Below are positions 2,970-4,805 of a DNA stretch of 64,000 nucleotides, piece after piece (positions within the stretch are counted from its first letter, which is position 1; each line of letters opens with the position of its first letter). This stretch comes from Escherichia coli (lineage in GTDB: Bacteria; Pseudomonadota; Gammaproteobacteria; Enterobacterales; Enterobacteriaceae): NCBI RefSeq assembly GCF_003019035.1, contig NZ_CP027447.1; one strand, 5' to 3'. Under the pieces are notes generated by a model. It made no database searches and was not told where the DNA came from. It saw nothing but the letters and a program-made list of their open reading frames with translations. Made by a program: the position numbers and the translations under genes.

Positions 2970-3197
2970 TATTATGATGCGCACTGATTATTCCTTATTC
3001 AGCTAAAATTTCTACTGTAGTCCCAACTTCCGTTCCTCGCTCATAACAGACATTCACTACAGTTATGGTAGAAGGTATGCATGCTGGGTGGGGAAAGTAT
3101 GAAGGAAAAGAAGACTGCTGCGCCGTTTGTTGTCACATTTATCTTCATTGGCTATGCAAGTCGTAATACAAGGTGGGACAAAACTGAGACACATAAG

Positions 3198-3230
3198 GCC
3201 TCGCAATGACTTGCAAGGCTTTACATGTTT
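3198..3230 (+). terminator. Possible intrinsic terminator downstream of the RT gene
   Basis: Imperfect hairpin GCCTCGCAA/TTGCAAGGC (3198-3219, loop TGAC) followed by a T-rich stretch. Confidence 0.25.
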
Positions 3231-3298
3231 TGATGTGGTGGGACGTGTGAGCGCAGTGTTGATGGGGTAATGCTTTGAATTAGAAGCGGATTCTTATA

Positions 3299-3344
3299 AT
3301 TCGTAATGCGAAGGTCGTAGGTTCGACTCCTATTATCGGCACCA
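3299..3344 (+). pseudogene. thrW: 3' fragment (46 nt) of tRNA-Thr(CGU) thrW; island att junction
   Basis: ATTCGTAATGCGAAGGTCGTAGGTTCGACTCCTATTATCGGCACCA matches the anticodon loop (CGT), T-arm and acceptor 3' strand with CCA of thrW as I recall it. The 5' half (GCCGATATAGCTCAG...) is absent, so this is not an intact tRNA gene. Confidence 0.7.
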
Positions 3345-3707
3345 TTTAAATCAATAAGTTATCTCACATTTAAGTAAACTACGTTCTCCTCTTGTGCCTT
3401 TGATTTTGCTCGCGTGCGCGGTGAAATGCCTGACTGAAAGGTGAGCATATCGACGAACCATTTCGAGAGTTTCCCATCTGCTCATTTTTAAGTGCAAGCA
3501 GGAAAACACCGGACTAAACCAATCAGCTGTTCGAAAATGGCAAGCGGATTAATATGCCATGGCGGGGCAGCTTTGAGCCGCACGCATGGGGTGTGGCAAG
3601 CCTGATGGATTTTGCTGTGCCTGTGGTGGCGTGTTTGCTGGTTTGGCTGTTGGTTAAACGCGAAAGTCATAATGCCAGGGGAATACCGCAGGGTGTTCAG
3701 GTTTTGC

Positions 3708-3734
3708 ATAAAAAAGCCCACCATTAAGGTGGGC
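3708..3734 (-). terminator. Intrinsic terminator active on the minus strand
   Basis: GCCCACC(3716-3722)-ATTAA-GGTGGGC(3728-3734) with A6 at 3710-3715, giving a U6 tail only on the minus-strand transcript. Confidence 0.45.
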
Positions 3735-3941
3735 AAAAGGAATGATTTATATTCTCTGAGAGAAACATTACATTTCTCCTTGTCACTTCTAACATAAAAA
3801 TATGGAGAAATAATGGAGCTTATATTAATTGGCGATTAGGTAACCATGTGGTTATACAAAACAATACAGTTCTTTACATTTGCCTTGTTTTATGAATACT
3901 CCTGAAGAGGTGTACAACATAATTAAACAAACAGGGTAAAT

Positions 3942-4556
3942 ATGAATATATTTGAACAAACTCCACCGAACCGCAGACGTTATGGTCTTGCTGCATTCAT
4001 TGGGCTGATTGCTGGCGTTGTTTCCGCATTTGTGAAGTGGGGGGCTGAAGTTCCATTGCCGCCACGTAGCCCGGTGGATATGTTTAATGCAGCGTGTGGT
4101 CCGGAATCATTAATCAGGGCTGCTGGGCAAATTGATTGCTCCCGTAATTTTCTCAATCCTCCGTATATTTTTCTTCGAGACTGGCTGGGGCTGACAGATC
4201 CCAATGCGGCTGTTTATACCTTTGCCGGGCATGTCTTTAACTGGGTTGGTGTTACGCACATTATCTTTTCGATAGTGTTTGCTGTCGGTTATTGTGTGGT
4301 CGCTGAAGTATTTCCAAAAATTAAACTCTGGCAGGGCTTACTGGCAGGTGCTTTAGCCCAACTTTTTGTTCATATGATTTCATTCCCTCTCATGGGACTG
4401 ACGCCACCTCTGTTTGATCTCCCGTGGTATGAGAATGTTTCTGAAATTTTTGGACATTTAGTCTGGTTCTGGTCCATTGAAATTATTCGCAGAGATTTAC
4501 GAAACAGAATTACTCATGAGCCAGACCCTGAGATCCCTTTAGGCTCAAACAGATAA
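3942..4556 (+). CDS. yagU: Inner membrane protein YagU (DUF1440)
   Basis: 204-aa [28 protein letters not shown]..., recognised as YagU; hydrophobic segments. Confidence 0.9.
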
Positions 4557-4570
4557 TGCATTGAATGATA

Positions 4571-4600
4571 AAAATGGCGCAAATACAGCGCCATTTTTAT
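4571..4600. terminator. Bidirectional intrinsic terminator between convergent yagU and ykgJ
   Basis: Stem ATGGCGC(4574-4580)/GCGCCAT(4588-4594), loop AAATACA, flanked by A-run upstream and T-run downstream. Confidence 0.5.
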
Positions 4601-4805
4601 AGGTTAAAAACATTGTTTTTAACTTTCTGATGGCAGATAGCCAGTGAGTACATCGCGCTACTTCAGGATGCTGTAGATCCGGAGAACACTATAGAGGAAG
4701 AGGCATTGTTGCTGGCAGATGGAAGAAGTTTCGGGTTTTGTTATCCCTGAAAAACGAAGCCCCGCGATTATAGCTGGCGGGGCAGTGCAATTAATTATTG
4801 CATAT

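Follow-up and report, generated by a model that had tools for sequence, protein, structure and literature searches.

The element and its surroundings

The element described here lies between an island junction and yagU in the window, the whole stretch of 64,000 nucleotides of Escherichia coli DNA that was analysed (contig NZ_CP027447.1). The features of this region are collected in Table 1. The earlier note had placed an island junction on one side of the element and a divergent yagU on the other, and both are confirmed. The junction is a copy of the 3' end of thrW, with the intact tRNA absent, and the identity of yagU is given by the RefSeq annotation and by Pfam DUF1440. The label 'orphan', which had been given to the terminator, is fair, as upstream of it there is no annotated gene.

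The right end of the island (1134-2969 on the plus strand and on to about 3290), up to its junction at the thrW copy, is formed by two genes. One encodes a 611-aa retron Ec67-family reverse transcriptase-Toprim protein, which matches PADLOC RT-Toprim_I-C (E 4.8e-222) and Pfam RVT_1. It is adjoined by a LEM-3-like GIY-YIG gene, according to the RefSeq annotation of identical DNA.

The sequence from 3350 to 3945 occurs in identical form in many complete E. coli genomes, and their RefSeq annotation shows an integrase pseudogene and yagU there. In intact prophages, the gene of family phrog_1443 follows the tail-fibre genes. The DNA between 3530 and 3935 is leftover lambdoid-prophage DNA that comprises the end of a tail-region gene, a leftward terminator and a rightward cargo promoter. 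The 'hypothetical proteins' of 45 or 61 aa that RefSeq reports at 3536-3797 (+) in B2 genomes (locus L003, 2977-3114; locus L005, 2388-2573) are phrog_1443 remnants. The 61-aa version reads through the hairpin, and both calls are probably annotation artefacts.

To the right of the element, the ATACAAAACAATACAGTTCTTTACAT block and a -10-like GAATACT are conserved 5' of yagU in Escherichia and Citrobacter and 5' of cdtA in CDT-I phages. This conservation suggests a promoter or operator shared by unrelated cargo genes. The yagU gene itself matches PHROG phrog_25162 (E 2.9e-115), and proteins with 85-97% identity to its product are present in Vibrio, Aeromonas, Pectobacterium, Providencia, Kluyvera and other genera. 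A 91% identical copy lies in a Klebsiella lambdoid phage, between the nin-region genes and the holin/lysozyme (lysis) genes. Thus, yagU appears to be a horizontally spread phage cargo and not an old core gene.

In K-12, the pao operon is found to the left of yagU, and the homology with the window begins at about 3781, exactly at the AAGGAG hexamer. An origin of the segment from elsewhere in K-12, for example from the end of the pao operon, was rejected, because the segment has no match in K-12.

Table 1. Features at the thrW-yagU junction, in window coordinates, with the chimeras recorded for the minus-strand RNA in EPEC E2348/69
Feature	Position	Strand	Remarks
thrW (tRNA-Thr) 3' end, 46-nt copy	3299..3344	+	Right junction repeat of the island filling the left part of the window
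Integrase pseudogene fragment	3359..3513	-	RefSeq annotation of identical sequence
Phage gene remnant, 3' part, PHROG phrog_1443 (unknown function)	3530..3660	+	Truncated
Hfq-associated transcript, minimum extent	3710..3848	-	139 nt; mapped from E2348/69 273198-273336
Rho-independent terminator	3710..3734	-	7-bp stem (6 G-C pairs), 5-nt loop, U6 tail
Hairpin stem arms	3734-3728, 3722-3716	-	GCCCACC, GGUGGGC
Hairpin loop	3727-3723	-	UUAAU
U6 tail	3715-3710	-	
Micro-ORF	3724..3768	-	MFLSENINHSFCPP, 14 codons, with the stop codon in the hairpin loop
U-rich single-stranded stretch	3735..3745	-	UCAUUCCUUUU; directly 5' of the hairpin; unpaired in the predicted fold
Candidate seed region	3738..3762	-	CUCUCAGAGAAUAUAAAUCAUUCCU; predicted mostly unpaired; best local duplex with the escC chimera fragment
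AAGGAG, Shine-Dalgarno-like hexamer	3776..3781	-	At the end of K-12 homology; predicted to be paired with CUCC 3818-3815
yagU promoter region	3854..3900	+	Block ATACAAAACAATACAGTTCTTTACAT; -35 TTTACA 3873-3878; -10 AATACT 3895-3900
yagU	3942..4556	+	DUF1440 inner-membrane protein; cargo gene travelling with the cassette
Chimera with sroC	3710-3732		36 fragments; RNA second; NC_011601 273198-273220 (PMC8550237)
Chimera with escC	3710-3746		14 fragments; RNA second; 273198-273234; odds ratio 148, p 1.6e-19 (PMC8550237)
Chimera with E2348C_1409.E2348C_1408.IGR (candidate sRNA)	3743-3848		12 fragments; RNA first; 273231-273336 (PMC8550237)

The terminator and the RNA that ends at it

The earlier note had described a strong minus-strand intrinsic terminator with a G+C-rich stem of 7 bp followed by six U residues, and this structure is present as claimed. 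The hairpin folds with an energy of -15.2 kcal/mol (z = -4.3), a value equalled by none of 200 shuffled sequences. Among the six terminator-like matches between 2500 and 5500, it ranks strongest; shuffled sequences give 3.0 +/- 2.1 matches. Outside E. albertii, which has CUUCU at this place, the U-rich stretch UCAUUCCUUUU that precedes the hairpin is conserved. This stretch and the U tail together resemble the module by which enterobacterial sRNAs bind Hfq, which was reportedly defined in work by Otaka in 2011 and by Ishikawa in 2012.

The note's suggestion that a small RNA is encoded here is supported by published data. The Hfq RIL-seq of EPEC E2348/69, which carries a near-identical sequence at the same locus (window position equals NC_011601 position minus 269488), contains a minus-strand RNA with its 3' end at the last U of the terminator (PMC8550237). 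This end, at 273198, corresponds to window position 3710, and on the 5' side the fragments reach at least 3848. In the supplementary tables of that work (Pearl Mizrahi et al. 2021, PMC8550237) the RNA is listed as the minus-strand 'yagU.E2348C_0240.IGR', with a longest U tract of 6. Its three partners account for 62 chimeric fragments in total, and the rows of Table S3 give about 900 further fragments for this RNA (PMC8550237). Its fraction as the second RNA of chimeras is 1 under the activating condition, a pattern typical of sRNAs (PMC8550237). The authors left it unnamed and did not include it among their new sRNAs (PMC8550237).

The motif GGCAAGG, listed for the pairing with E2348C_1409.E2348C_1408.IGR, overlaps the SD-like hexamer in E2348/69 (PMC8550237). 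That partner, from prophage PP6 of E2348/69, is itself an unnamed RIL-seq RNA with ten partners and is always second in its chimeras. Its target motif GGCAGGG/GGCAAGG fits the SD region of the yagU-side RNA of E2348/69; the window reads GACAAGG.

The supplementary files of a UTI89 Hfq co-immunoprecipitation have no entry for yagU or thrW, no usable start site for pao or yagU was found in the literature, and a later survey of Pas sRNAs and the paper on EcsR2 (PMC4350180) do not cover the yagU-side terminator RNA. A consensus scan of the minus strand from 3735 to 3941 found no sigma-70-like promoter, and manual inspection gave weak candidates only.

Duplex prediction for the whole RNA with sroC and with escC was no better than with shuffled sequences. 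A windowed search paired the escC fragment with positions 3762-3738 at -18.2 kcal/mol, which is weakly significant, as 2 of 60 shuffles did as well. The AAUCAUU core of this region, CUCUCAGAGAAUAUAAAUCAUUCCU, is invariant across lineages.

The 139-nt RNA is predicted to fold with -34.1 kcal/mol (z = -3.6). In this fold the AAGGAG hexamer is paired with CUCC at 3818-3815, and the start codon of the micro-ORF lies in a small hairpin. The minus strand of 3802-3839 supplies the bases paired with AAGGAG in the predicted fold. On the plus strand, the same positions hold a conserved near-repeat, ATGGAGAAATAATGGAG, with an SD-like GGAG followed by a mini-ORF of eight codons, MELILIGD, which K-12 and the divergent Escherichia genome L040 retain and which is reduced to two codons in E. 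albertii.

Distribution and contexts of the cassette

The segment 3655-3800 is found in 1299 of 5426 complete E. coli genomes (about 24%), once per genome and always beside yagU. The remaining 76% or so, K-12 included, do not have the cassette. Judging by the named strains, among them Nissle 1917, E2348/69 and those of ST95, the E. coli carriers presumably belong mainly to phylogroups B2 and F, that is, to extraintestinal-pathogenic lineages; EPEC E2348/69 belongs to phylogroup B2. The F-type and B2-type copies differ at many positions between 3500 and 3700 and are identical from about 3700 to 3905.

ST95-type strains such as IHE3034 carry a second copy in a lambdoid prophage, which has diverged from the window and is 81.8% identical with it over 236 nt. 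In the CDT-I prophage of IHE3034 the order is J, lom, tail fibre, phrog_1361, phrog_1443, the hairpin with its upstream sequence, the promoter region, about 230 bp, and cdtABC. The window from 3530 to 3935 is colinear with this prophage over about 400 bp, and the cargo there is cdtABC, not yagU. Both loci have the arrangement of a moron-type cassette: phrog_1443 (a remnant in the window), the cassette, and then a cargo that differs, yagU in one case and cdtABC in the other. A search of a phage collection with the segment 3655-3800 of the window gave no match. The ST95 prophage copy, used in the same way, matched E. coli phage cdtI (from EPEC) over no more than the 105 bp nearest the promoter, and this promoter-proximal stretch is all that the phage has in common with the cassette.

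The yagU cassette is also found away from thrW. In the divergent Escherichia genome L040 (SCPM-O-B-8794) it adjoins fliF/fliE and an integrase remnant, and this placement (L040 900-4000) suggests either a rearrangement between integrase remnants or an independent insertion. In E. albertii it is located between dsbB and a gene for a PPC-domain protein, bor and a porin gene. The cassette thus has four unrelated neighbourhoods (thrW/integrase remnant, fliE/integrase remnant, dsbB/bor/porin and tail-fibre/cdtABC), and in every one of them 45-110 nt upstream of the hairpin are kept together with it. When 80 loci from other genera were inspected upstream of yagU, the hairpin proved to be confined to Escherichia; beyond this genus the recognisable part is the core of the yagU promoter only.

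The hairpin is kept and the peptide is not

The 7-bp stem is retained in seven sequences that represent five lineages: E. coli F, E. coli B2, the divergent Escherichia, the CDT-I prophage and E. albertii. The loop is variable, with four versions (UUAAU, CUAGU, UCACU and CCACC). In most E. albertii copies the stem reads GCCCGCU/AGCGGGC, which differs from that of E. coli by two compensatory pairs (A-U to G-C and C-G to U-A). In the stem alignment, 97.6% of the cells are paired, compared to 31-56% when the partners are slid. Covariation is seen at two pairs and stems essentially from a single split between lineages, the other five pairs being invariant. The evidence for conservation of the hairpin is modest, yet consistent.

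The micro-ORF described in the earlier note is borne out in most respects. The AAGGAG hexamer is followed, after a gap of 7 nt, by an ATG at 3768-3766 that opens the 14-codon frame MFLSENINHSFCPP, and a 23-codon version begins at the ATG at 3795 (3724..3795 in the list of open reading frames). The note was mistaken in placing the stop codon in the terminator stem: the TAA at 3726-3724 is in the loop of the hairpin. The combination AAGGAG-N5-9-ATG is found twice in the window, where 2.39 occurrences are expected, so that an SD with an ATG is here at chance level.

Conservation of the frame, which the note had named as a check, is not found. The 14-aa peptide MFLSENINHSFCPP is shared by the F copies and most B2 copies, and E2348/69 has MSLSENINHSFCPP, with the change F2S. 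In L040 the frame encodes MFLSEIINHSFCPP, also of 14 aa or, from an extra upstream in-frame ATG, of 15 aa, and the SD is weakened to AAAGAG. The copy in the CDT prophage has lost the stop and would encode 31 aa, or 32 from an extra upstream ATG. In E. albertii, a 1-nt deletion at codon 10 shifts the frame and produces one of 47 aa with a hypervariable tail. A 24-bp deletion in a single genome, Z1323HEC0477 (L005, about 2550-2560), removes the start and the first eight codons and leaves the terminator intact. The ATG at 3795 is missing in L040 and in E. albertii. Retained in most lineages are the ATG and the first three codons; in other lineages the SD is weakened to AAAGAG or AGAGG. Neither the reading frame, nor its length, nor its stop is thus conserved among relatives, as would be expected of a small protein. 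An exact look-up of the 23-aa form in a collection of 15 billion proteins did not find it, although gene callers rarely call ORFs so short, and the peptide string has no occurrence in the literature searched.

With a length and frame that differ in every lineage examined and an SD and ATG at chance frequency, the micro-protein proposed in the note is not supported. The pairing of both SD and ATG in the predicted fold is a further argument against efficient translation. The 14-codon ORF is probably an incidental reading frame inside the RNA, and it serves as a caution that a textbook arrangement of SD, ATG and stop can be incidental.

A possible mechanism and its alternatives

By combining these data, the element is probably best described as a candidate for a prophage-derived Hfq-binding sRNA, in which a working terminator ends a short leftward transcript and the 14-codon ORF is a chance frame. 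The element combines a terminator with a U tail, a U-rich single-stranded stretch 5' of the hairpin and in vivo association with Hfq, the last documented in the literature for E2348/69. The leftward transcript would start within or beside the yagU promoter region, from a promoter that is presumed to lie there, and would end at the hairpin and its U6, giving an RNA of at least about 139 nt (3848 to 3710), possibly with shorter processed forms. The U-rich stretch, the G+C-rich hairpin and the U tail would then load Hfq. The RNA would most likely base-pair by means of the unpaired stretch at about 3762-3738, just upstream of the terminator, which is the putative seed. In E2348/69 the RNA appears to behave like an sRNA, as it takes the second place in its chimeras with the mRNA of escC and with SroC, a sponge RNA. 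It would presumably be expressed in the strain of the window as it is in E2348/69, and some regulatory outcome might follow from such pairing.

The most serious rival, possible but clearly on the unlikely side, is that the terminator serves as an insulator only. It would stop divergent or pervasive leftward transcription from the region of the cargo promoter, originally shielding the phage tail genes from antisense RNA, and the transcript would be a by-product that sticks to Hfq by its hairpin and U tail and regulates nothing. The CDT-I prophage has the terminator precisely at the boundary of a phage late gene and the cargo promoter, both of them rightward; this position agrees with such a role, as do the small number of RIL-seq partners, the failure to find a clear minus-strand promoter, the loss of the element from most E. 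coli and the tolerance of the RNA body for a 24-bp deletion. A mere by-product, however, would not readily account for the high enrichment of the escC chimera, for the sRNA-typical second position of the RNA in all chimeras under the activating condition, or for the retention of sequence 5' of the hairpin in every context. It is quite improbable that the 14-codon ORF is translated from its strong SD into a functional peptide, possibly in addition to an sRNA activity. Such a micro-protein or dual-function RNA would fit the 7-nt spacing of AAGGAG to the ATG, the first codons kept in most lineages and the precedent of 15-aa peptides in Hfq-binding sRNAs, such as SpfP in Spot 42, but it is at odds with an ORF of 14, 14-15, 31-32 or 47 aa depending on the lineage (by way of a frameshift, a stop loss, F2S and one deletion of the start), with a weakened SD that is paired, like the ATG, in the predicted fold, and with the absence of the 23-aa form from the protein collection, the rarity of gene calls for such short ORFs notwithstanding.

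Even less probable is a relic with no present role, left behind by the deletion of a leftward gene of the phage or island; the earlier note, too, had proposed the fossil 3' end of a deleted operon. The part of this proposal that holds is the origin of the surroundings, which are degraded prophage DNA with an integrase pseudogene and a truncated phrog_1443 gene. The same hairpin and upstream sequence are, however, present in an apparently intact prophage, where no gene lies between the hairpin and the cargo promoter, and in E2348/69 the RNA is made and bound to Hfq. Compensatory changes preserve the stem in E. albertii, and the hairpin moves together with the adjacent promoter, which argues for a maintained element rather than decaying debris. 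Scarcely credible is a leader-peptide attenuator. In this case translation of the micro-ORF, on reaching the hairpin, would prevent termination, and transcription would continue into a leftward gene beyond it. In favour of this, the window and L040 have the stop codon within the loop, and in E. albertii and the CDT prophage copy the frame continues through the hairpin; yet the DNA 3' of the terminator is different in all four contexts, being in the window the antisense of the gene remnant and then the integrase pseudogene, and no alternative anti-terminator pairing is seen in the folds.

A bolder version of the sRNA reading, which we regard as unlikely, is that lambdoid phages carry the cassette as a portable two-way unit, with a leftward Hfq-binding sRNA gene back-to-back with a rightward promoter for differing cargo (yagU, cdtABC). 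The RNA might then link the locus of the cargo to networks of the host, for example by repressing escC in EPEC while being titrated by SroC, and the micro-ORF with its stop in the loop may make translation and termination, with Hfq loading, mutually exclusive.

Comparison with known systems

The closest relatives of the candidate sRNA in kind are the Hfq-dependent sRNAs of prophages in pathogenic E. coli, such as PasA-D of EPEC E2348/69, AgvB, AsxR, the EcOnc RNAs and Esr41 of EHEC, and DicF. Like them, it is intergenic in lambdoid prophage DNA beside structural or cargo genes, is probably a short transcript ending in a Rho-independent terminator and has a patchy, lineage-linked distribution, with survival after decay of the prophage as proposed for PasB. 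The association of the Pas RNAs with Hfq was found by RIL-seq in the same E2348/69 experiment. The Pas RNAs differ in having 21-41 recorded partners, against three for the yagU-side RNA.

Identity with one of the known RNAs was considered and rejected in three cases. PasB had been suspected, since it is common in ExPEC and its own flanks contain IS009, but PasB is located at 1466261-1466343 in prophage PP6 of E2348/69. A permissive Rfam scan of 3000-4700 found nothing relevant at the element, and no match to AgvB, AsxR, Esr41 or STnc100; Esr41 was rejected on this ground. The only Rfam match at the element is to Hrs1, whose 20.4 bits (E 0.5) fall short of the gathering score of 56.4. EcsR2 was identified as the IS009 element beyond yagU, where the match to Rfam IS009 (RF02111) at 4562-4700 (+) scores 120.6 bits and reaches the end of the scanned stretch. 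EcsR2 is an intergenic sRNA between yagU and ykgJ, reported to derive from vestigial phage DNA (PMC4350180). It shares with the yagU-side element a position in an intergenic region flanking yagU and this reported phage origin, but it has a different sequence, is encoded on the plus strand and is found in all E. coli, compared to about 24% for the element.

Dual-function sRNAs with very small ORFs include Spot 42, which encodes SpfP of 15 aa, SgrS with SgrT, and AzuCR. They resemble the yagU-side RNA as Hfq-binding RNAs with a small ORF, which here is SD-led and has about 14 codons. In those systems, however, a conserved peptide is known to be translated, whereas the yagU-side ORF conserves neither frame nor length. 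With leader-peptide attenuators, for example that of pyrBI, the element has in common a small ORF that would be translated as far as the terminator hairpin; it differs in having neither a conserved downstream gene nor an alternative structure.

Phage morons are cargo genes with their own promoter and terminator, located between phage genes. The element is similar, as yagU and cdtABC occupy the same slot behind a promoter-bearing cassette. The classical moron has its terminator downstream of the cargo; here an oppositely oriented terminator lies upstream of the cargo promoter and yields an Hfq-bound RNA. The most distinctive feature of the element is this back-to-back pair, common to yagU and cdtABC, of an sRNA terminator that faces left and a cargo promoter that faces right.

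Implications

The element is best filed as an unnamed candidate addition to the known kind of prophage Hfq-dependent sRNAs; it is not a new kind of system, and by sequence and Rfam it matches none of the named members. Its absence from K-12 would explain why the RNA has no name and is present only as an unnamed row in RIL-seq tables. The value of the finding is that of a well-delimited, testable and clinically widespread sRNA candidate, whose biology is of a familiar type.

About one quarter of complete E. coli genomes carry a candidate regulatory RNA, with escC, a type III secretion gene, and the sponge SroC among its recorded partners. One and the same phage-derived promoter/terminator cassette precedes yagU, an acid-resistance gene, and cdtABC, a toxin operon, and the locus provides a concrete example of how the decay of a prophage leaves expressed non-coding genes behind.
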